25,446 bases of DNA from Candidatus Iainarchaeum sp. (GTDB lineage Archaea > Iainarchaeota > Iainarchaeia > JAADDC01), in contig JAADDC010000063.1 of assembly GCA_013154145.1 (NCBI GenBank), positions 1 to 25,446 on the forward strand. Direction: 5' to 3'. Of this stretch, positions 1-10,466 are shown piece by piece. The notes below the pieces were generated by a model. It had not been told where the DNA came from, ran no database searches, and saw only the letters and a list, made by a program, of their open reading frames with translations. How positions within the stretch are numbered: the first letter of the stretch is position 1; every line of letters begins with the position of its first letter. The position numbers and the translations under genes were made by a program.

Positions 1-210
1 GTCCGAGTTGTTAACGAGGATGACGCGCCACGTAAAGGGCGTCGTGAGGCTTGCCTGGACGACCCTCGGCGGAGGAGCGGTCTTTGGCGGCATCAGGTCC
101 TCTTCGTAGGAGTAGAGGAGTTCCTGAGTGCTGGTGTAGACCAGCAGACCGAGACCCATGACGATGAGTGTCAGGAGCAGTACCGAGAGGATCTCGCTGA
201 CGCCCCGCAC
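1..210 (-). CDS. Type IV pilin/archaellin-like protein with class III signal peptide (truncated by window edge)
   Basis: Not in ORF track. Manual translation from GTG at 210: MRG/VSEILSVLLLTLIVMGLGLLVYTSTQELLYSYEEDLMPPKTAPPPRVVQASLTTPFTWRVILVNNSD, open to position 1. It has a basic residue + Gly cleavage site followed by a hydrophobic helix, and a TATA-like TTTAAG 27 nt upstream. Confidence 0.75.
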   Translation of the reverse strand, partial: MRGVSEILSVLLLTLIVMGLGLLVYTSTQELLYSYEEDLMPPKTAPPPRVVQASLTTPFTWRVILVNNSD

Positions 211-231: not shown

Positions 232-237
232 CTTAAA
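232..237 (-). promoter_or_regulatory. Putative TATA box (TTTAAG) for the pilin-like gene, overlapping the stop codon of the ASCH gene
   Basis: Reverse strand reads aaaTTTAAGcg; first T is 27 nt before GTG 210; no Shine-Dalgarno (SD) motif in between. Confidence 0.5.
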
Positions 238-781
238 TTTGTTGTAGCAGCTCGTAGGCCCGGCGGACTATGGCCCTCACCTTGCCACGTTTATTCAAGC
301 CCCCCAGCTCCATGGCCACCTTCCTTATGCTCCCGGTCTCCACGAGGCGTTGCAGTATCTTTCTCGCCTCCGGATCGTCGGCGAAGAGATTTTTCTCCAG
401 GGCGAGGCGGGCGATCTCCCGGGGGGATAGCTTCCCGTAGAAGCGCCGCTCCACCTCGAAGGGCTCGGGGAAAACCTCCTCCACCTCGAAGTGGACCACG
501 TAGAGGGGGACGTCCTTCTTTCCGTAGATGCGGTCCAGCTCCCTCTTGAGTTCCTCGTAGTCCATGCCCTCCAGCCGGGCGTGTTCCTCCCCTATCTCGC
601 TCTTTCTTAGCTTCTCTATCTTTGTCACCCGGCCGATGGCCCAGACCTTGCCCCCCGAGTGTATGAAGAAGCGGTCGCCCTCCCTCAGGCGGGTCCGCCT
701 CCTTATGGTGATGCGCTTCCTCCCGGAAAGCACCAGGGGCAGGTACTTCTCCTTGAGCATCAGGTACCTCCGGACCTCCAC
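233..781 (-). CDS. ASCH-domain protein, YqfB-like (N4-acetylcytidine amidohydrolase-like), with C-terminal helical/HTH-like extension
   Basis: LSGRKRITIR (GxKxxTxR ASCH motif), EEHARLEGM, ELDRIYG and LYVVHF match the recalled E. coli YqfB pattern (ILAGRKTITIR...KHAEQENM...IADIYPG...FYVIEF). The ORF extends to TTG 799; GTG 781 is preferred from TATA spacing, and ATG 760 is possible. Confidence 0.8.
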   Translation of the reverse strand: MEVRRYLMLKEKYLPLVLSGRKRITIRRRTRLREGDRFFIHSGGKVWAIGRVTKIEKLRKSEIGEEHARLEGMDYEELKRELDRIYGKKDVPLYVVHFEVEEVFPEPFEVERRFYGKLSPREIARLALEKNLFADDPEARKILQRLVETGSIRKVAMELGGLNKRGKVRAIVRRAYELLQQI

Positions 782-802
782 GGGAAACTCTATCCTCAAG
801 GG

Positions 803-811
803 CTTTATAAC
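803..811. promoter_or_regulatory. Putative bidirectional TATA box (TTTATAA / TTATAAAG)
   Basis: Only AT-rich element between the divergent genes; 27 nt before GTG 831 (+) and 29 nt before GTG 781 (-). Confidence 0.55.
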
Positions 812-830
812 CTTCTTCCTTTCTCATTCC

Positions 831-2300
831 GTGAAGCTCAGGGTAAGGGTTCTTGACCTGGACGCCGAGAAGTACGTGGCGGTTCTCAACGAGAGGACGG
901 CCAAGCGTATCGGTGAAGGACCGGACGGAAGGGTGGAGATCGTAAAGGACGGAAAGAAGGTCGTGGCCATACTGAACACCGCCAAGCGATCGGTGAAGGA
1001 AGACGAGGTTGGCGTGCTCCTGGACGTGGCCGAAGTCTTGAACCTGAAGGACGGCGACGTGGTGGAGGTCTTCCCTGAGGAGCCCCCCAGAAGCATAGAG
1101 GCCATAAGGAAGAAGATCTTCGGTGAGAAGCTCAGCAAGGAGGAGATCGAAGCCATAATAGGCGACGTGGTGGAGGGGGCCCTGTTCCCCGCGGAGGCCT
1201 CCGCCTTCATCGTGGCGGCCCAGATCAACGGCCTCGACGAGGACGAGACCGTTTACCTCACGGAGGCCATAGCAAATTCGGGGCAGCGAATAGACTTTGA
1301 CGGCGTGGTTGTGGACAAGCACAGCATAGGAGGGGTCCCGGGCAACCGCATCACCTTCTTCTTTGTTCCAATAATGGCTTCCCTCGGCTTCAAGGTTCCC
1401 AAGACCTCCTCACGGGCCATAACGTCGCCGTCGGGGACGGCGGACACCATGGAGGTGGTGGCGAGGGTTGATCTCAGTGCCGAGGAGATCAAGGAGATCG
1501 TCGAGAGGGTGGGGGGCGTCATCGCCTGGGGAGGAGGGGCCAACATCGCCTCCGCCGACGACAGGCTCATACAGATACGCCGCCCCCTGCGATTAGATCC
1601 TCTCGGGATGGTCCTCGCCTCCGTGATGGCCAAGAAGTTGGCGGTCTCGTCCAAGTACGTGGTCCTTGATCTGCCTGTCGGTCCCGAGGCCAAGCTCAGG
1701 TCCTTCTCCGAGGCCCGGGACTGGGAAAGGAGGTTCAAGGAGCTGGGGGAGCGGCTGGGCATCAAGGTCATAGGCTTCGTCTCCAACGGCATACAGCCCA
1801 TCGGCAGGGGCATAGGACCAGCCTTAGAGATGAGGGACGTTCTGATGACCTACACCGGAGAGGGATCGAAGGATCTACTGGAAAAGGGCGTGGAGATAAC
1901 GGCGAGGCTGCTCTCCGTCCTGAAGAAGGTTCCCATCAGCAGGGCCAGGAAGATGGCTATGGACGAAGTCAGGAGCGGGAGGGCCGAGGCAAAGCTCAGG
2001 GAGATCATAGAGGCCCAGGGAGGGGATCCGGAAGTACGACCGGAGGACATAGAGGTGGGGAGGTATCAGGAGGAGGTGATCTCTCCCGCCGACGGGAAGG
2101 TCAGCTACATTTCCATCCAGAGGATCGCGGCCATAGCCCGCTACGCCGGGGCCCCCGTGGACAAGGGGGCCGGCATATGGATGAACGTGAAGATCGGAGA
2201 TAGGGTGAAGAGGGGTGACGTGCTCTTTACCCTATTCTCCTCTTCCAAGCGGAAGCTGAAAGCCGCCCTGGAAGTGGAGAACCCCGTGAGGGTGCAGTGA
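831..2300 (+). CDS. deoA: AMP phosphorylase (archaeal NMP phosphorylase, thymidine phosphorylase family)
   Basis: N-terminal beta-barrel extension (MKLRVRVLDLDAEKYVAVLN), DKHSIGGVPGN, KTSSRAITSPSGTADTMEV, DPLGMVLASVMAKK, GAPVDKGAGI. Start placed at GTG 831; the track's 564 start overlaps the ASCH gene. Confidence 0.93.
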   Translation: MKLRVRVLDLDAEKYVAVLNERTAKRIGEGPDGRVEIVKDGKKVVAILNTAKRSVKEDEVGVLLDVAEVLNLKDGDVVEVFPEEPPRSIEAIRKKIFGEKLSKEEIEAIIGDVVEGALFPAEASAFIVAAQINGLDEDETVYLTEAIANSGQRIDFDGVVVDKHSIGGVPGNRITFFFVPIMASLGFKVPKTSSRAITSPSGTADTMEVVARVDLSAEEIKEIVERVGGVIAWGGGANIASADDRLIQIRRPLRLDPLGMVLASVMAKKLAVSSKYVVLDLPVGPEAKLRSFSEARDWERRFKELGERLGIKVIGFVSNGIQPIGRGIGPALEMRDVLMTYTGEGSKDLLEKGVEITARLLSVLKKVPISRARKMAMDEVRSGRAEAKLREIIEAQGGDPEVRPEDIEVGRYQEEVISPADGKVSYISIQRIAAIARYAGAPVDKGAGIWMNVKIGDRVKRGDVLFTLFSSSKRKLKAALEVENPVRVQ

Positions 2301-2327: not shown

Positions 2328-2915
2328 GTGGCCCTGCTGATTTCCTCCCCCCAGGAGTTGAGGAAGGTCGTGGACGAGGAGATCGCCCCGGAGCTCTACG
2401 AGTACGTCCGGATGGGCGGCATACTGAGGGTGGAGGGAAGGGGAGAAGAGCTGAGGGTCATCTACCCCAGCAGGGAAATGATAAGGAAGCGGTTGAACGA
2501 GCTGAAGGAAAGGGAGAAGACCATCATCGCCGAGATGTCCAAGCTCAGGAGATTGGAGAAGAGGGGGAGCCCCCTGGACTTACTGAGAATAAAGCACCGG
2601 ATACTTCTCTTGGTGGACAAGGACTACAGGGAGCTGGCGGAGCTGGTGGACGCCGAGAGGCTTTTGAGTGATAAGAGGGGGAGGAAGATTGTGGAGGAGC
2701 TCCAGAGGAGCAAAGAATACCGGGAACGGATCCGGGAAACCCTCAGGGAGAGCCCCGTTTATAGGAATCGCCGCTTCGGGGAATTCGTGGAGAAGGTGGA
2801 GGAAGTAAAAGGTAAGTTGCTGGGTGAGAGGTACAGGAAGCTTGAGGAGTCGCTGGAGAGGGTCAGGAAGGAGATGGAGGTTCTCCGGAGGCTGCAGAGG
2901 TGGGTGAAGGGGTAG
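2328..2915 (+). CDS. Hypothetical highly charged coiled-coil protein (195 aa)
   Basis: E/K/R-rich helical sequence with codon style like its neighbours; TATA upstream; its TAG overlaps the GTG of hel308 (TAGTG). Confidence 0.7.
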   Translation: MALLISSPQELRKVVDEEIAPELYEYVRMGGILRVEGRGEELRVIYPSREMIRKRLNELKEREKTIIAEMSKLRRLEKRGSPLDLLRIKHRILLLVDKDYRELAELVDAERLLSDKRGRKIVEELQRSKEYRERIRETLRESPVYRNRRFGEFVEKVEEVKGKLLGERYRKLEESLERVRKEMEVLRRLQRWVKG

Positions 2916-5065
2916 TGGACCCGGCGAGGCTCGTTCTCGAGAGGAATCGCTACGAGGACTTCAACCCGGTTCAGAAGGAAGCTTTGAAGGCTGGTGTCAC
3001 CGAGGGCGTCAACCTCGTTGTGGCGTCCCCCACCGCCTCGGGCAAGACCACCATAGCGGAGCTGGCCATGGTTGCCTCGATCCTCCGGGGGAAGAAGGCC
3101 GTCTACACCTCCCCCCTCAGGGCCCTGGCCGCCGAGCACTACAGGGAGTTCGCCCGGAAGTACCCAGAGTTCAGGGTGGCCCTCTCCATAGGCGACTACG
3201 ACTCCAAGGACGCACACCTCAAGCACTATGACGCCATCTTCACCACCTACGAGAAGCTGGACTCGCTCATAAGACACAGGGCGCCATGGCTGCCGGACGT
3301 GGGAGTACTTGTCGTCGACGAGGTGCACAGCATCGACTCGGACAGGGGGCCCACCCTGGAAGTGTTGCTCACCCGCATGAAGTCCTTTGATATCCAAATA
3401 GTGGCCCTCTCGGCCACCATCCCCAACGCCGAGGAGATAGCCGGCTGGCTGAGGGCAAAGCTCGTGGTCTCCAACTGGCGGCCCGTGGAGCTCGTAGAAG
3501 GTGTCTACTACGATGGCGTCGTGAGGTTCAACAACGGCGAAGAGCTCCGTTTCTCCAGCGAAGAGGAAATCATAGAAGACGCCCTAAAGAGGGGGAAGGG
3601 CGTGCTCATCTTCGCCCCCACGAGGCGCTCTGCCATGGCCACCGCCAGAAAACTCAGGGAGATAACCAAGAAGTACGTGAGGGGGAGAACTCCCCTGAGG
3701 AGCCTCGCGGAGAGGGTGCTGAACGCCCTGGAATCCCCCACGGCACAGTGTAAAGAGCTGGCCGAGGACATACTCCACGGCGTTGCCTTCCACCACGCGG
3801 GTCTCGTCCAGAAGCAGAGGGAGGTGGTGGAGGAGGGCTTCAGAAGCGGAAAGATAAAGGTGGTGGTGGCCACGCCCACGCTGGCCGCCGGCGTCAACCT
3901 GCCGGCCTTCCGGGTCATCATCACTTCGTTGAGGAGGAGCGAGGGCTTTTACAGCAGGGAGATCCCCGTGAGGGAGTACAAGCAGATGGCGGGGAGGGCC
4001 GGCCGGCCCCGGTACGACGAGAGGGGCGAGGCCATCATCATAGCCCGCACGCCCAAGGACGCCGAGCACTACTTTGAGAAGTACGTGATGGGGGAGCCCG
4101 AAGAAGTTTATTCCCGCCTGTCCTCCTACAGGGCCATACGGTTCCACACGCTGGGGCTCATAGCGGACCGAACTGTGAGAAATCGCGACGCCCTCCTGGA
4201 CTTCTTCGCCAGCAGCTTCTTCTTCTATCAAAGCAAGGACGTGGACAGGCTCGAGGAGCTCCTCTCGTCGGCGGTCCTCGAGCTGGAGCTCTGGGAGATG
4301 ATCAAGGACTTCGAGCCCACGAGGCTGGGGAGCCGCGTGGCCTCCCTCTACATTGATCCCGAGACGGGGAGGATGTTCTACGATTTCTCCCGGAGGCCAA
4401 AGCTCGGCGAAGTGCCCGTGCTCTTCCTCATTGCCTCCTCCGTGGAGCTTTATCCGTACCTGCCGGTGTCGAGGAAGGAGGAGATGGAACTCCTGATGAT
4501 GGCCGAGGAGATGAAGGAGGAGCTCCCCGTGGACTTCGAGGAGGCCCTCAACGACATACACTTCCTCAACAGGTTCAAGCTGGCACTTTTACTATCCAAG
4601 TGGGTGAACGAGGCGGACGAGGACGAGATACTGAAGGAGTTCGGGGTCTCGCCGGGGCAGCTGAGGGGTATCATTTCCATTGCCGAGTGGCTGGCCCACT
4701 CCCTGGGGGAGATCGCCAAGGTGGCGGGCAGCGGAGCCGTCTCCGTGTACGCCAAGAAGATGGAGGCGCGGATACGGCACGGCGTCAAGGAAGAGCTGCT
4801 CCCGCTGGTAGAATTGAAGGGCATTGGGAGAAAGAGGGCCCGAAAGCTCTTCAACGCTGGCTTCACTTCCCCGGAGAAGATAAAGAGGGCCGACCCCGTG
4901 GAGCTGGCCAAACTCCTGGGACCCAAGGTAGCCCTTAATATTCTCAAGCAACTTAAGGTTAAGGTGGGGGACGAGGTGAAGGAGAGGATAAGGAAGGTGT
5001 CCCCCGCCGAGCAGACGACCCTGGAGGTGTTCATGGGTGGAGCCCCTGGAGATACTGAGGAGTGA
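2915..5065 (+). CDS. hel308: Hel308/Hjm (Ski2-like SF2) DNA helicase
   Basis: Q motif FNPVQ, Walker A SPTASGKT, PLRALA, DEVH, LSAT, HHAGL, TPTLAAGVNLPA, QMAGRAGRP, C-terminal HhH (LKGIGRKRARKLF). Start at GTG 2915 after GGTGAAGGGG. Confidence 0.95.
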   Translation: MDPARLVLERNRYEDFNPVQKEALKAGVTEGVNLVVASPTASGKTTIAELAMVASILRGKKAVYTSPLRALAAEHYREFARKYPEFRVALSIGDYDSKDAHLKHYDAIFTTYEKLDSLIRHRAPWLPDVGVLVVDEVHSIDSDRGPTLEVLLTRMKSFDIQIVALSATIPNAEEIAGWLRAKLVVSNWRPVELVEGVYYDGVVRFNNGEELRFSSEEEIIEDALKRGKGVLIFAPTRRSAMATARKLREITKKYVRGRTPLRSLAERVLNALESPTAQCKELAEDILHGVAFHHAGLVQKQREVVEEGFRSGKIKVVVATPTLAAGVNLPAFRVIITSLRRSEGFYSREIPVREYKQMAGRAGRPRYDERGEAIIIARTPKDAEHYFEKYVMGEPEEVYSRLSSYRAIRFHTLGLIADRTVRNRDALLDFFASSFFFYQSKDVDRLEELLSSAVLELELWEMIKDFEPTRLGSRVASLYIDPETGRMFYDFSRRPKLGEVPVLFLIASSVELYPYLPVSRKEEMELLMMAEEMKEELPVDFEEALNDIHFLNRFKLALLLSKWVNEADEDEILKEFGVSPGQLRGIISIAEWLAHSLGEIAKVAGSGAVSVYAKKMEARIRHGVKEELLPLVELKGIGRKRARKLFNAGFTSPEKIKRADPVELAKLLGPKVALNILKQLKVKVGDEVKERIRKVSPAEQTTLEVFMGGAPGDTEE

Positions 5066-7160
5066 CGAGGAGAGGAGGGCCATCATAGGCAGGAAGAAGA
5101 GCCTGTTCAGGAAGAATGGCTTCAAGACGGCTTTATATATCGGAAAGATCGAGGAGGAGGGCCCCCTCTACGGCTACGACCTCTACATGGATGCGCTGCT
5201 TCCCCACGTGGTCTTCGTGGCCGGTGCCCGCGGCAGCGGAAAGAGCTACACGCTGGGCGTCATAGCCGAGGAACTGGCCGAGAAGAACCCCTATGTGGGC
5301 GTCCTCATCATCGATCCCATCGGCATCTTCTGGTCCATGAAGCTGCCGAACAGGCAGGAGGAGGAGATCGAGAAGCTGGCCGAGTGGGGCCTGACGCCAA
5401 AGGGATACGACAACGTGGAGGTCTACGTGCCCAAGGGCATGGCAGACCGCATACCGCCCGAAACCTACGACAAGGTCTTCTCCCTGAAGCCCTCCATGCT
5501 CACCACCGACGACTGGGTGTTGACCTTCGGATTGGATCGATTTTCCCCGGCGGGACTGCTCCTGGACAAGGTCCTGGAGATCGTAAGGGAAAAAAGGGGA
5601 GACGACTACGGCCTTGAGGATATCATAGAAGTTTTGGAAAACGAGGAGGAGCTACTGGACAAGGAGAAGGGCTTCAAGAAGGAGACCGTGAGGGCCCTGC
5701 TCTCCCGCTTCTACGCCGCCCGCAACTGGGGCATCTTCGACAGGGAGGGAACGCCCCTCTCGGAGATCATCCAGAAGGGGAAGGTGAGCATACTGGACAT
5801 CTCCTTCCTGGAGGAGAGTGTGGGGGCCCTGGTCATCGGCATCATGGCCCGGAGGATACTCCAGGCCCGGAAGCTCATCACCCGCTCCGTGGCGGCGGAG
5901 CTCCTGAAGCTCTCGGAGAGGGAGAAGCGGGAGGTGGACATCCCGCCCACCTGGCTCATCATCGACGAGGCCCACACCCTCATCCCGGCGGGATCCCGGA
6001 AGACCGCCGCCACGGACCCCCTCATTGAGTACGTGAAGCAGGGCAGGAGGCCCGGCTGCTCCCTGGTCTTTGCCACGCAACAACCCTCTGCCATAGACAG
6101 CAGGGTCCTCTCCCAGCTGGACATACTCATCGTCCACAAGCTGGTCTTCGGCGAGGACGTGAAGGCCGTGGAGAAGAGGATGCCCACGATACTGCCCAAG
6201 GAGTACAGCGGCGTGAGGATGAGGAGGTTGCCCGTAGGCGTGGCCATCATAGGAGACAGGGAGGACTCCACTTCCCGGGCCTTCCTGGCGCGGATACGTC
6301 CCCGGAGGAGCCAGCACGAGGGCCGGGAAGTGGCCGTTGACGAGAAGGTTAGCGTGGAGGTCCCCGAAGAAGGGGAGGAGGTGGAAGAGGTGAAGAAGGA
6401 AAGGAAGGAGGAGAAGCTGAGGCGTTCCTTCGTGGTGAACGTCACGGAGGACAGGGCCAGGAAGATCATGGCCAGTCACGGCAGCTCCTTCTTGAGGAGG
6501 ATACTGGGGGGCGGAGGCAACGTAGTAGATCTAAAATTGAAGTTCGTTCCCGTCTGGGAGGTGACCTTCGCCTACTACAATGCCCCCAGGGGATCCAGCA
6601 AGCGGGTGGCCTACATCGACGGCTACGAGGGGGAGTTCATCCACTACAAGGACGGGAAGATCGTCTTCTCCAAGGGGCTGAAGTACCTCTACAAGCTCTC
6701 CCGGAACCAGAGGAAGTTGCTCCTTTTCCTGAAGACCCACCCGGGCTCCACGCTCTCCGAGATCGTGGCCCGGGCCAAGGTGCCCGCCGCGGTGGTAGAA
6801 AAGGAGCTGGAGCTCCTGAAGCAGGCAGGGCTGGTCAAGGAGGAAGACGGCCGCTACTACACGCCCCTGGAGATCGAGCTACCCCTCTCCCCCGAGCACT
6901 CCCTCATACCCTCCATGAAGGAACTGCTGGTGACCGAGACGAGGATAGAGGACGAGGAGATACTGCCCTACAACTTCAAGGAGGACCGGGTGGCCGAGAT
7001 ACTGCGCTCCATATGGCCCGGCGTAGTCCCCCGGGAGGTGGAGCCCATCTACAGGCCCGTCTGGGTGGGGATAGTCCTCAGGGGAGGGAAGAAGTACAAG
7101 GTCATCGTGGACGCCATCAGCGGCGTGGTGGAAAAGGAGATCCCACTGGTGGAAGCATGA
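5037..7160 (+). CDS. HerA/FtsK-superfamily (DUF87/COG0433-type) ATPase lacking a HAS barrel, with C-terminal PepSY-like - winged HTH - PepSY-like region
   Basis: Walker A GARGSGKS, IIDPIG, Walker B IIDEAH, arginine-finger region QGRRPG, ATQQPS. The C-terminal ~250 aa has two PVW...D(G/A)xxG repeats flanking LSRNQRKLL...TLSEIV...VEKELELLKQAGLV. SD GGAGGTG at 5023-5029. Confidence 0.85.
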   Translation: MEPLEILRSDEERRAIIGRKKSLFRKNGFKTALYIGKIEEEGPLYGYDLYMDALLPHVVFVAGARGSGKSYTLGVIAEELAEKNPYVGVLIIDPIGIFWSMKLPNRQEEEIEKLAEWGLTPKGYDNVEVYVPKGMADRIPPETYDKVFSLKPSMLTTDDWVLTFGLDRFSPAGLLLDKVLEIVREKRGDDYGLEDIIEVLENEEELLDKEKGFKKETVRALLSRFYAARNWGIFDREGTPLSEIIQKGKVSILDISFLEESVGALVIGIMARRILQARKLITRSVAAELLKLSEREKREVDIPPTWLIIDEAHTLIPAGSRKTAATDPLIEYVKQGRRPGCSLVFATQQPSAIDSRVLSQLDILIVHKLVFGEDVKAVEKRMPTILPKEYSGVRMRRLPVGVAIIGDREDSTSRAFLARIRPRRSQHEGREVAVDEKVSVEVPEEGEEVEEVKKERKEEKLRRSFVVNVTEDRARKIMASHGSSFLRRILGGGGNVVDLKLKFVPVWEVTFAYYNAPRGSSKRVAYIDGYEGEFIHYKDGKIVFSKGLKYLYKLSRNQRKLLLFLKTHPGSTLSEIVARAKVPAAVVEKELELLKQAGLVKEEDGRYYTPLEIELPLSPEHSLIPSMKELLVTETRIEDEEILPYNFKEDRVAEILRSIWPGVVPREVEPIYRPVWVGIVLRGGKKYKVIVDAISGVVEKEIPLVEA

Positions 7161-7732
7161 GGGAGTTCAACTACGTGGAGTTACTGCCCCGCCGGGGAGT
7201 GATAGCCGTCCTGGGCAAGGACGTGGAAGAAAAAATAATGAGGGCCGCTGCCTACGCCCGCGAGGAAGGCAAGAAGTTAAAGGTCGTTCCCCTGAACCCG
7301 AGGCAGGCAGAGCTCGCCCAGAGGCTGAACATCCCCACCGTCCACGGCTACCCGGACTACTTCTACGTGCTGCTGGACTTCGAGCCCATGGAGAACCTCT
7401 TCACCGTGGGCAACTGCGACTGTCCCATGCTCCTGAGGCTCTACGAGATGGGGGCCGAGAAGACGGTGGTGCTGCTGAGGAGAAAGTACCACACGGTCTC
7501 CGTGGAGTACAGCACGTACCTCTCTCATCTCATCGAGCCCATTATTTCCCTCTACGGGGAGATCGTGGCCCGCAGGGAAAACCCCTTTGGCCATAGGGTG
7601 GTGGACATCGTCCCCATCGAGGAAGATCCGGAAGAATTGAGGAGGTTGCTCAAGGAGGTTCCCGGGGTCGTGGAGGTGGGGATACTGCCCATAATCCCCT
7701 ACCGCAAGATCGTCCTCAAAAGCTCCCGGTGA
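7157..7732 (+). CDS. Ribose-5-phosphate isomerase A-fold protein with degenerate active site
   Basis: KVVPLNPRQAELAQRLNIP and FGHRVVD...DPEELRRLLKEVPGVVEVGI align with RpiA (VPTS.QA..LA...IP; DNGNFIID...DP.....L..IPGV.E.G). The GTGST, DGADE and KGxG motifs are absent. ATGA overlap with the ATPase stop; the track's 7013 start is spurious. Confidence 0.7.
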   Translation: MREFNYVELLPRRGVIAVLGKDVEEKIMRAAAYAREEGKKLKVVPLNPRQAELAQRLNIPTVHGYPDYFYVLLDFEPMENLFTVGNCDCPMLLRLYEMGAEKTVVLLRRKYHTVSVEYSTYLSHLIEPIISLYGEIVARRENPFGHRVVDIVPIEEDPEELRRLLKEVPGVVEVGILPIIPYRKIVLKSSR

Positions 7733-8854: not shown

Positions 8855-8861
8855 TTTTAAA
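8855..8861 (-). promoter_or_regulatory. Putative TATA box (TTTAAAA) containing the cdc6 stop codon, serving rpl44e
   Basis: 40 nt before ATG 8821, leaving a short leader that contains GGTGAT. Confidence 0.45.
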
Positions 8862-10041
8862 GGCTTCTCCTCACGACGGCCAGCAGCTTCGCCGGGTCCA
8901 CGTTGAGGTCCACGATGCGCGTGTTCCCCCTGAAACCCTTGCCCGCCGTCTTCACACTGATGATTCCGTAGGTTTCCAGCTCGTTGAGGTACTCGCGGAA
9001 CTGCCTGTCGCTGACGGGCGTGAGGACGTGGTCTTCCGCCACCTTTCTGTAGTAAGAATAGAGGAGACCCGACGTGACCACCTTCTCCCCTCCGAAGCTG
9101 GACACCCCCTTCTTGCCCAGCTTAAGAGAAGCAAGGGCCATGAGGACGGCCCTGTGCTGTTCTGGCAAGGAAGCCACCATCTCGTAGACGATCTCCTCCT
9201 CTACCAGCTGCCTTGCCCTCTCCACGTGCTCCCTCTCCACCCGCGGGGCGCCCTCCTCCTCGGCGATGTCCCCGGCCCGGAGCAGTAATTGCAGGGCGTA
9301 GCGGGCGTCCCCCGAGTGCTTGGCGGCAAGGGCGGCTGCCAGGGATATGGCCTCCGGGGCCACGGCCCCCTCCTTGAAGGCCTCCTGGGCCCTCTGCTCG
9401 AGGATGATTCTCAGCTGCTCCGCGTTGTAGGGCGGAAAAACCAACTCCACCTCGCAGAGGGTGCTACGGGTCCGGGCGTCCAGCTGCTCCTTGAAGGTGG
9501 GGTTGTTGGATATGCCGATGATGGATATGGAGCCCCTCTCCAGCTCGTCGTTGGCCCGGTTTAAACGATATATGAGGTCCCTGAGCCGCTTGATCATGTC
9601 GATCTCGTCCAGGGCCACCACCAGCCTCAATCCCCTCCCGTCGATGAGCTCCAGGAGTTTGTCGTAGACGGCGGAGGTGGAGTAGCCTATGAGGTCCCGG
9701 GAGGGATCCAGGTGGCGGACCAGCTTCAGGAGCACCGAGTGCTCGCTCTCCCTCATGCCGTTGACGTATATGCCCATGGCAGGGATGTTGTGGGAGCGGG
9801 CGTAGTCGTTGAGGTCAGAGAGGACTTTCTTGGTGACTGCCGTCTTTCCCGTGCCCGTTTTGCCATAGATGAACACGTTCTCTGGTTTCCTGCCCGAGAG
9901 AACGGGCGCTATTTTCTGGGAAAGCTCCCGGATCTCCTCCTCCCTGAAGGGCAGCTCGGAGGGCAGGTAGTGGGGCGAGAGGACGTCCCTGTTCTTGAAG
10001 AGCCTGTACTCCTTCACCACCTCTTCAAAGACGTTGCCCAT
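8857..10041 (-). CDS. cdc6: Orc1/Cdc6 replication initiator (AAA+ plus winged helix)
   Basis: FKNRDVLSPHYLPSELPFREEEI, Walker A GKTGTGKT, Walker B VALDEID, sensor regions ISN and GDARYAL, C-terminal wHTH (FREYLNELETYGII...GFRGNTR). True start ATG 10041 (MGNVFEE); the track extension to 10176 overlaps sepF. Confidence 0.95.
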   Translation of the reverse strand: MGNVFEEVVKEYRLFKNRDVLSPHYLPSELPFREEEIRELSQKIAPVLSGRKPENVFIYGKTGTGKTAVTKKVLSDLNDYARSHNIPAMGIYVNGMRESEHSVLLKLVRHLDPSRDLIGYSTSAVYDKLLELIDGRGLRLVVALDEIDMIKRLRDLIYRLNRANDELERGSISIIGISNNPTFKEQLDARTRSTLCEVELVFPPYNAEQLRIILEQRAQEAFKEGAVAPEAISLAAALAAKHSGDARYALQLLLRAGDIAEEEGAPRVEREHVERARQLVEEEIVYEMVASLPEQHRAVLMALASLKLGKKGVSSFGGEKVVTSGLLYSYYRKVAEDHVLTPVSDRQFREYLNELETYGIISVKTAGKGFRGNTRIVDLNVDPAKLLAVVRRSL

Positions 10042-10053
10042 AATACCCACTCC

Positions 10054-10083
10054 TATTAAAATCCTGCGGGATAACAGTTTATA
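10054..10083. promoter_or_regulatory. Divergent cdc6/sepF promoter region: TATTAAAA (+, 10054-10061), near-palindrome ATCCTGCGGGAT (10061-10072), TTTATA/TATAAA (10078-10083)
   Basis: AT-rich boxes in a 68-nt intergenic spacer; SD GAGGTGAT at 10097-10104 for sepF and GGAG before cdc6. Confidence 0.45.
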
Positions 10084-10109
10084 GAGGTGCATCAGTGAGG
10101 TGATAAGTG

Positions 10110-10466
10110 ATGGGGCTCCTGGACGCCATATTCGGAAGGAAGAGGGAAGAGATTGAGCTGGACGAGTTTCTGGCATCCCTCGAAGAGGGCGAAGAAATCC
10201 TCGAAGAGGCCAAGATGTACGTGAAGCCCATGCAGCTGCTCTCCCAGAAGGATTACGACGTGGTGATCTCCGAGCTGGAGAAGGGCAACATCGTACTGCT
10301 GAACATACGCCCCATGGCCTCCCGGAACATGATGATGGTGAAGGAGGTCGTGGGCAAGATCAAGGACTACGTCCTGGAGCACGGCGGGGACATCGCCAGG
10401 ATCACGGAGTATTACGTTCTCGTGACCCCGCCTGGGGTAAAAATCGTGAAGCGTAGATCCCGATGA
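10110..10466 (+). CDS. sepF: Archaeal cell division protein SepF (FtsZ membrane anchor)
   Basis: N-terminal amphipathic helix MGLLDAIFGRK, acidic linker, core YVKP...ELEKGNIVLLNI...GGDIARI...VLVTPPGVKI. ATG 10110 follows SD GAGGTGAT; GTG 10107 is an alternative. Confidence 0.88.
   Translation: MGLLDAIFGRKREEIELDEFLASLEEGEEILEEAKMYVKPMQLLSQKDYDVVISELEKGNIVLLNIRPMASRNMMMVKEVVGKIKDYVLEHGGDIARITEYYVLVTPPGVKIVKRRSR

Follow-up and report, generated by a model that had tools for sequence, protein, structure and literature searches.

The window analysed in this study is a 25,446-nucleotide (nt) stretch of DNA from Candidatus Iainarchaeum sp., contig C15 (JAADDC010000063.1) of an assembly of 543 kb in 76 contigs that is approximately 81% complete (GC approximately 0.60). 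Analysis of the window revealed a gene for a two-domain protein, with an ASCH domain followed by a C-terminal helix-turn-helix (HTH) domain, that lies head to head with deoA, a gene for a predicted AMP phosphorylase. Our tentative explanation, to which we give somewhat less than an even chance, is that the ASCH-HTH protein may be an RNA-directed deacetylase of N4-acetylcytidine (ac4C), with a possible tie to the breakdown of RNA and nucleotides through AMP phosphorylase. The ASCH-HTH family and its chemistry have already been described; the pathway link in this lineage is the new part, and it rests on gene order within one taxonomic order. A preliminary description of the window had proposed an ac4C amidohydrolase like YqfB of E. 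coli, co-regulated with AMP phosphorylase and allowing the archaeon to scavenge the modified RNA of a host.

ASCH domain and catalytic residues

Residues are numbered throughout from ATG 760 (P0001, 175 amino acids); numbering in the full protein is +7. The minus-strand ASCH protein with the motifs GRKRITIR, HARLEG and IYG was found as the preliminary description had it, all three motifs being present and the Pfam ASCH model matching residues 2-94 (E 7e-17). An AlphaFold (AF2) model of the ASCH-HTH protein made with 19 orthologues (predicted local distance difference test score, pLDDT, 91.4) consists of a beta-barrel (residues 1 to ~100) and then four helices (113-174). The best matches of the full model in the PDB by Foldseek are the structures 9kyf and 9kyh of E. 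coli YqfB, free and ac4C-bound, with a TM score by target of 0.81, a root-mean-square deviation of 1.6-1.8 Å, 94 columns and 26% identity. Structures of ZmASCH (11-16% identity), TTHA0113 and EF3133 rank below YqfB. The protein also matches 1te7 by phmmer (E 0.02), and in this alignment K21/T24/R26/E74/Y89 of YqfB fall on K15/T18/R20/E64/Y79, in agreement with the earlier claim that the Lys, Thr and Arg of YqfB and its downstream Glu have counterparts here (K21/T24/R26/E74 with K15/T18/R20/E64). H70 of YqfB corresponds to H60, which is kept only in most of the genus and in one of 44 proteins of the wider family.

Mutagenesis of YqfB found K21, T24, R26, E74, H70 and Y89 to be essential or important; the T24S variant was as active as the wild type and bulky 5' groups were tolerated (PMC6972931). 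Residue conservation was counted across 44 ASCH-HTH proteins from several archaeal lineages. Arginine occurs at position 20 in all 44, lysine at position 15 in 43 and tyrosine at position 79 in 42; threonine occurs at position 18 in 43 proteins, with serine in the remaining one, and the acid at position 64 is aspartic acid in 37 proteins and glutamic acid in seven. Judged from this alignment, the YqfB catalytic residues are nearly invariant across the ASCH-HTH family, with T/S and E/D exchanges allowed.

C-terminal domain and family membership

The preliminary description had recognised the ASCH domain and overlooked the predicted HTH formed by the last ~70 residues, which have no match in Pfam or NCBIfam. 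Modelled alone, this domain gave a pLDDT of 96, and it is very basic (predicted isoelectric point 10.7). A VIA-align comparison against 48,161 chains gave sigmaA domain 4 (Z 6.0) and then DesR (Z 5.6) as top matches, and the top 50 were rich in sigma-region-4 and LuxR/GerE-type domains; small helical domains often reach such Z values. Comparison of the domain's profile with the PDB found the HTH of DesR (E 0.024), and Foldseek with the domain alone gave no significant PDB match. As these Z values are not high for so small a helical domain, an HTH-like fold of the sigma-region-4/LuxR kind is predicted with moderate confidence.

An orthologue profile was scored against 1.84 billion representative proteins and found 382 proteins at E <= 0.001. 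Among the best 150 matches, ~65 match end to end (170-254 amino acids) and the rest are single-domain ASCH proteins (~100-115 amino acids). Named members of the family come from Archaeoglobus, Baldrarchaeia, Thermoproteus, Pyrobaculum (one labelled COG2411), Infirmifilum and other Thermoprotei, and the profile covers positions 2-175 of a 179-amino-acid Archaeoglobus protein (E 2.2e-37). The octapeptide GRKRITIR is of the threonine (GKTR) type. Taken together, the protein probably belongs to the archaeal ASCH-AAAD_HTH family (COG2411), an assignment that rests on full-length homology to the Archaeoglobus protein of the same architecture and not on the sequences of the assayed proteins Afu3ASCH, Pku2ASCH and Pku4ASCH.

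These assayed proteins combine a GKTR-type ASCH domain with a C-terminal 'archaeal ASCH-associated HTH', and the tail of proteins of this type resembles sigma factors E/H by HHpred (10.64898/2026.02.27.708502). In the same study tRNA binding required the HTH tail, which was also sufficient for it; the tails bound none of the DNAs tested, with the exception of Pku2, which bound tRNA and DNA both weakly (10.64898/2026.02.27.708502). The assayed archaeal ASCH-HTH proteins deacetylate ac4C in tRNA and as the free nucleoside, and the threonine (GKTR) motif type is active on ac4C (10.64898/2026.02.27.708502).

Start codons and shared promoter

The start of the ASCH-HTH gene is placed, from codon conservation, at GTG 781, because in the five species of the genus compared conservation covers the seven codons from this GTG to ATG 760 and similarity is lost just upstream of the GTG. 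The seven codons read V-E-V-R-R-Y-L, with V-V-V-K-K-Y-L and V-E-P-R-R-Y-L as variants, and the codon differences are mostly synonymous. In the second genus of the family the ASCH gene starts upstream of the equivalent ATG, by four codons. ATG 760 and TTG 799 were rejected as starts in favour of GTG 781 on codon-level conservation; GGAGGT was rejected as a Shine-Dalgarno site, as it falls within the conserved coding extension.

One TATA box would drive the ASCH-HTH gene and deoA in opposite directions. The divergent spacer of ~50 nt with a single TATA box, as first described, is present at 49 nt. The box lies 27 nt from GTG 831 of deoA and 29 nt from GTG 781, and with a single TATA box at these distances both genes look leaderless. 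Spacers in the family measure 61-71 nt to the internal ATG, the true spacers being ~12-21 nt shorter. In the TATA-box region of the spacer, CTTTATAACC is kept in four of the five species of the genus, and inspection of the family spacers found no convincing operator-like repeat besides the near-palindrome flanking the TATA box.

AMP phosphorylase and nucleotide catabolism

The naming of the deoA product as an AMP phosphorylase proved well founded: it scores 551.1 bits on TIGR03327 (AMP_phos), above the equivalog cut-off of 535. Its Pfam domains are Glycos_trans_3N, Glycos_transf_3 and PYNP_C, and the domain order of AMP phosphorylase (N-terminal extension, Glycos_trans_3N, a-b domain, PYNP_C) is present. 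By profile score and domain order, deoA (831-2300) is thus a predicted AMP phosphorylase gene. According to PMC5113843, which cites Aono et al. 2012, AMP phosphorylase accepts AMP, cytidine monophosphate (CMP) and UMP.

A total of 61 genomes of the class, including the present one, were surveyed; 16 of these belong to its own order. AMP phosphorylase occurs in 53 of the 61 genomes. RuBisCO and an IF-2B-family gene resembling the isomerase of ribose-1,5-bisphosphate (R15P) were found in all 12 family relatives and in both sister-family genomes, the isomerase matches being below the equivalog cut-off. In four genomes of the order (G000, which is the present genome, G004, G006 and G014; two of them at least 92% complete) no gene of the cytidine/dCMP-deaminase fold (PF00383) was found, while the same model found matches in 12 of 14 control genomes. 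A PfkB kinase occurs in one of the four order genomes, and a PNP/UDP-family phosphorylase solely in the present genome. The lack of a deaminase-fold gene and the presence of PfkB in only one genome leave CMP phosphorolysis as the visible route, and this gene content suggests that cytidine carbon would enter central metabolism only as CMP. Acetylated cytidylate would then need deacetylation at the level of RNA or of nucleotides; it would otherwise be a dead end, because the genomes show no cytidine-deaminase route.

No de-modification enzyme is described in the literature as part of the archaeal AMP/pentose-bisphosphate pathway. Because our literature search found no paper that mentions both the ASCH domain and AMP phosphorylase, the association of the two appears unreported.

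Conservation of the gene pairing

Full-length matches to the ASCH-HTH protein were found in all 16 genomes of the order. The other 45 genomes of the class gave no full-length match; one of them (G017) has a weak partial match to the C-terminal part (E 4.7e-5). In the family, the ASCH-HTH gene and deoA are head to head in 15 of 15 genomes with both ends visible (six and eight genomes of two genera and one metagenome-assembled genome, MAG), with identities of ~41-47% for ASCH and ~52-55% for deoA. A homologue of orf195, the next gene downstream of deoA, is present in most family loci compared, L040 and L044 being the exceptions. Beyond the ASCH gene, on the side away from deoA, other family genomes carry a gene for a small, basic-tailed membrane protein; this gene was not found anywhere in the present assembly, and the start of a pilin-like gene occurs in its place. 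In G004 the conserved block stops after orf195. The core of ASCH-HTH gene, deoA and orf195 therefore persists at both breakpoints, that of the present genome and that of G004.

In G014, a genome of the sister family, deoA lies elsewhere and the ASCH-HTH gene converges on the genome's single IF-2B-family gene, which scores best on the R15P isomerase model (174.8 bits, below the cut-off). In G015, also of the sister family, the ASCH-HTH gene converges on a gene for a NUDIX hydrolase, followed by a Tyr/Trp-tRNA synthetase gene. These sister-family neighbours are more telling on the catabolic link than synteny within the family. The G015 ASCH-HTH gene (L022/L048, G015:C29:4521-5020) is frameshifted after ~52 residues, which makes it a pseudogene unless the assembly is in error.

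Outside the order, contexts were sampled protein by protein for seven homologues (Table 1). The 4-nt overlaps with the stops of the methionyl- and valyl-tRNA synthetase (MetRS, ValRS) genes suggest co-translation with aminoacyl-tRNA synthetases. By these outside contexts the ASCH-HTH family in general is tied to the machinery of tRNA and RNA, and the catabolic tie is specific to the order of the present genome.

The ac4C writer and other ASCH genes

All 16 genomes of the order encode a TmcA/Nat10-type acetyltransferase, as against none of the other 45 of the class. ASCH-domain genes, two to four loci to a genome, occur in 15 of 16 against one of 45. Since the genomes are related, this co-occurrence amounts to roughly one evolutionary event. 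On contig C70 of the present genome, tmcA (L024:14-1483) is followed by a gene for a 103-amino-acid ASCH protein (1480-1791) that overlaps the tmcA stop by 4 nt and has the motif GKKRATVR; this ASCH gene also lies just downstream of tmcA in most family relatives. Operons of TmcA/Nat10 with ASCH of the YqfB clade have already been noted (10.64898/2026.08.01.741249). A third ASCH-domain open reading frame of the present genome, a frame of ~136 amino acids, was observed at G000:C32:3328-3510 (-).

Proposed role and alternative explanations

In the explanation that we prefer, the YqfB-type barrel would cleave the N4-acetyl amide by hydrolysis: K15 would be the base, T18 would activate water, R20 would provide the oxyanion hole and E64 would be the acid. 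The HTH, basic and C-terminal, would bind tRNA or another RNA. A single TATA box would serve this gene and, in the other direction, that of AMP phosphorylase. The ac4C in RNA under turnover, or in its breakdown products, would be deacetylated, the cytidylate would enter nucleoside monophosphate (NMP) phosphorolysis (CMP + Pi giving cytosine + ribose-1,5-bisphosphate) and the ribose-1,5-bisphosphate would pass through R15P isomerase to form III RuBisCO. The deacetylation of ac4C and the binding of tRNA by the HTH are presumed here from the literature on relatives; we infer the in vivo substrate, co-expression with deoA and the metabolic hand-over to AMP phosphorylase. The substrates would be at the RNA level rather than free ac4C, because the protein is not a plain YqfB and the HTH tail binds tRNA in relatives. 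Co-regulation and a flow from ac4C or its monophosphate (ac4CMP) through CMP to R15P, as in the preliminary description, may operate. The scavenging of modified host RNA that accompanied them is not required, as the lineage has its own TmcA writer and an ac4C enzyme can be explained by it.

A number of observations weigh against this explanation. None of the seven homologues outside the order adjoins an AMP-pathway gene; the synteny of ASCH and deoA holds in the 15 family genomes and is absent from these seven. Within the family the whole block of ASCH-HTH gene, deoA, orf195, Hel308, HerA and orf239 is syntenic and the pairing may be inherited synteny; the pairing in effect arose once, and its persistence is weak evidence for shared function, because gene pairs on one TATA box are hard to separate. 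RuBisCO and an R15P-isomerase-like gene, the pathway partners looked for, are both present in the 12 family relatives; in the present assembly, RuBisCO is represented by the C-terminal 28 profile positions only, at a contig end (G000:C71:11235-11318 (-), locus L001), and the isomerase was not found, neither of which proves absence in an assembly 81% complete. Stand-alone ASCH domains are as active as the full-length proteins (10.64898/2026.02.27.708502). D27, H70 and Y89 are further invariant residues of the YqfB clade; Y89 is kept (Y79), D27 is R21 in the ASCH-HTH protein, and the H70 position is not conserved family-wide. On the YqfB equivalog model NF003443 the full protein scores 33.2 bits and the ASCH domain alone 35.5, far under the cut-off of 93. 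On these scores the protein, with 182 amino acids and two domains against the single domain of ~103 amino acids of the YqfB type, is no YqfB equivalog. The YqfB-like identity first proposed thus holds for the catalytic residues and the top structural match, and fails on the profile score (33-35 bits against 93) and on the HTH tail.

A somewhat unlikely alternative is an ac4C eraser that acts on tRNA or rRNA and tunes or repairs their modification, with the adjacency to deoA as inherited synteny fixed by the shared promoter. In its favour, the pairing is limited to one family and lies inside a six-gene block with Hel308 and HerA, homologues elsewhere are found behind MetRS or ValRS or near TmcA, and the lineage encodes its own TmcA writer. 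However, the sister-family neighbours are again nucleotide-catabolism genes (R15P-isomerase-like, NUDIX), the core of ASCH-HTH gene, deoA and orf195 outlasted breakpoints on both sides, and it is a different, stand-alone ASCH gene that is coupled to tmcA. It is improbable that the protein hydrolyses, in the manner of YqfB, free ac4C or ac4CMP taken from a host and so feeds NMP phosphorolysis, with a C-terminal domain irrelevant to substrate choice. The conserved basic HTH tail in ~65 representatives (of the best 150), which binds tRNA in relatives, argues against it, as do a genus with no detectable kinase that would make CMP from cytidine, a genome that already has a single-domain, YqfB-sized ASCH protein and an own TmcA that makes host-derived ac4C unnecessary; the conserved catalytic residues and YqfB-like fold, the tolerance of YqfB for bulky 5' groups, the hydrolysis of free ac4C by relatives and the promoter common to AMP phosphorylase are in its favour.

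The divergent arrangement on one TATA box with the near-palindrome AAGG..TTTATAA..CCTT, together with a tail that resembles DNA-binding HTH domains, would also fit a transcription factor whose HTH binds the divergent spacer and controls deoA and its own gene, the ASCH pocket sensing a (modified) cytidine nucleotide. We regard this as highly improbable, given the strong conservation of the catalytic residues, the characterised HTH tails, which bound tRNA and, of the DNAs tried, none (Pku2 being weak on both), and the place of the gene in other archaea, where it is distal in aminoacyl-tRNA synthetase operons and not divergent from a target. An enzyme that is at the same time a regulator, its tail binding AAGG-TTTATAA-CCTT and ac4C nucleotides in the ASCH pocket switching AMP phosphorylase expression, is even more improbable; if it were true, the breakdown products of modified RNA would induce their own catabolism. 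Least probable of all is another ASCH activity: the protein might, for example, be a ribonuclease, as ZmASCH is, or might hydrolyse or read a different base modification, N4-acyl or otherwise. The functions of ASCH proteins are diverse and the fold matches include ZmASCH structures, but YqfB ranks first by structure (26% identity, ZmASCH having 11-16%) and the threonine (GKTR) motif is the type active on ac4C.

If an RNA-directed deacetylase is functionally linked to AMP phosphorylase, the archaeal pathway from NMP to RuBisCO would gain a de-modification step. This would account for the way in which very small archaea that scavenge nucleotides deal with RNA rich in acetylation. The lineage, with one writer and three ASCH genes in ~0.6 Mb, is a compact natural system in which to study ac4C turnover in RNA.

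Features of the window and of the homologous loci

The coordinates of the features in the window, and of the contexts sampled outside the order, are listed in Table 1. Neither Pfam nor NCBIfam has a match to orf195. Rib_5-P_isom_A was rejected as an assignment for orf239, as the match (E 0.003) is below the cut-off and unconfirmed by NCBIfam.

Table 1. Features of the window (positions in the window) and contexts of ASCH-HTH homologues outside the order (positions in the named locus).
Feature	Location	Strand	Remarks
Pilin-like protein, gene start	1-210	-	Hydrophobic N-terminus
ASCH-HTH gene	233..781	-	182 amino acids from GTG 781; stop codon 233-235
C-terminal four-helix HTH domain	236..445	-	Residues ~106-175; predicted structure
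ASCH beta-barrel domain, YqfB-like	461..781	-	Foldseek to YqfB structures; phmmer to 1te7
HARLEG...IYG segment	521..583	-	HARLEG 566-583, IYG 521-529; E64, Y79, H60
Octapeptide GRKRITIR (GxKxxTxR type)	701..724	-	K15, T18, R20
Divergent spacer	782..830	.	49 nt; read as bidirectional promoter for two leaderless genes
TATA box tttataa	804..810	.	Single, near-palindromic, flanked by AAGG..CCTT
AMP phosphorylase, deoA-type	831..2300	+	489 amino acids, GTG start; TIGR03327
orf195	2328..2915	+	Charged protein; part of the minimal conserved core of ASCH-HTH gene, deoA and orf195
Hel308-type helicase	2900-5065	+	Conserved run downstream of orf195
HerA-like ATPase	5037-7160	+	C-terminal MarR/TrmB-like winged helix
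orf239	7013-7732	+	239 amino acids; sub-threshold RpiA-like match
Orc1/Cdc6 gene	8857-10176	-	AAA+ domain, lid, C-terminal winged helix
A. profundus	L035:3019-5540		ASCH-HTH overlaps MetRS stop by 4 nt
Infirmifilum lucidum	L052:1575-4573		ASCH-HTH overlaps ValRS stop by 4 nt
MAG L051 (metagenome contig k141_92148)	3668-6111	+	103-amino-acid ASCH, ASCH-HTH, Rrp41-like, Rrp42-like; overlapping ends
MAG L049			ASCH-HTH ~2 kb from tmcA
Pyrobaculum, Baldrarchaeia, L050			Contexts uninformative

Comparison with known systems

The closest characterised relatives are Afu3ASCH, Pku2ASCH and Pku4ASCH, with which the present protein shares the two-domain layout of ~175-200 amino acids, the GxKxxTxR motif and an HTH that has no Pfam model and, with moderate confidence, is predicted to be sigma-region-4-like; it differs from them in coming from an archaeon with a reduced genome and in being encoded divergently with AMP phosphorylase on one TATA box, an arrangement that none of the sampled loci of other lineages showed. 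With E. coli YqfB (9kyf/9kyh; PMC6972931) it has in common the ASCH barrel and the active-site K, T, R, E and Y, H70 also being present here, whereas the identity is 26%, D27 is replaced by R and the 70-residue HTH is extra; YqfB showed no tRNA binding of its own in fusion experiments (10.64898/2026.02.27.708502). Like the tmcA-ASCH operons, the present genome carries tmcA with an ASCH gene; this operon, however, holds a paralogue on another contig, and the ASCH-HTH gene is unlinked to tmcA. Consistent with the AMP/pentose-bisphosphate pathway of Thermococcus and of DPANN/CPR (PMC5113843, PMC6389311), the deoA product passes the cut-off of AMP phosphorylase and RuBisCO and an IF-2B-family isomerase occur family-wide.

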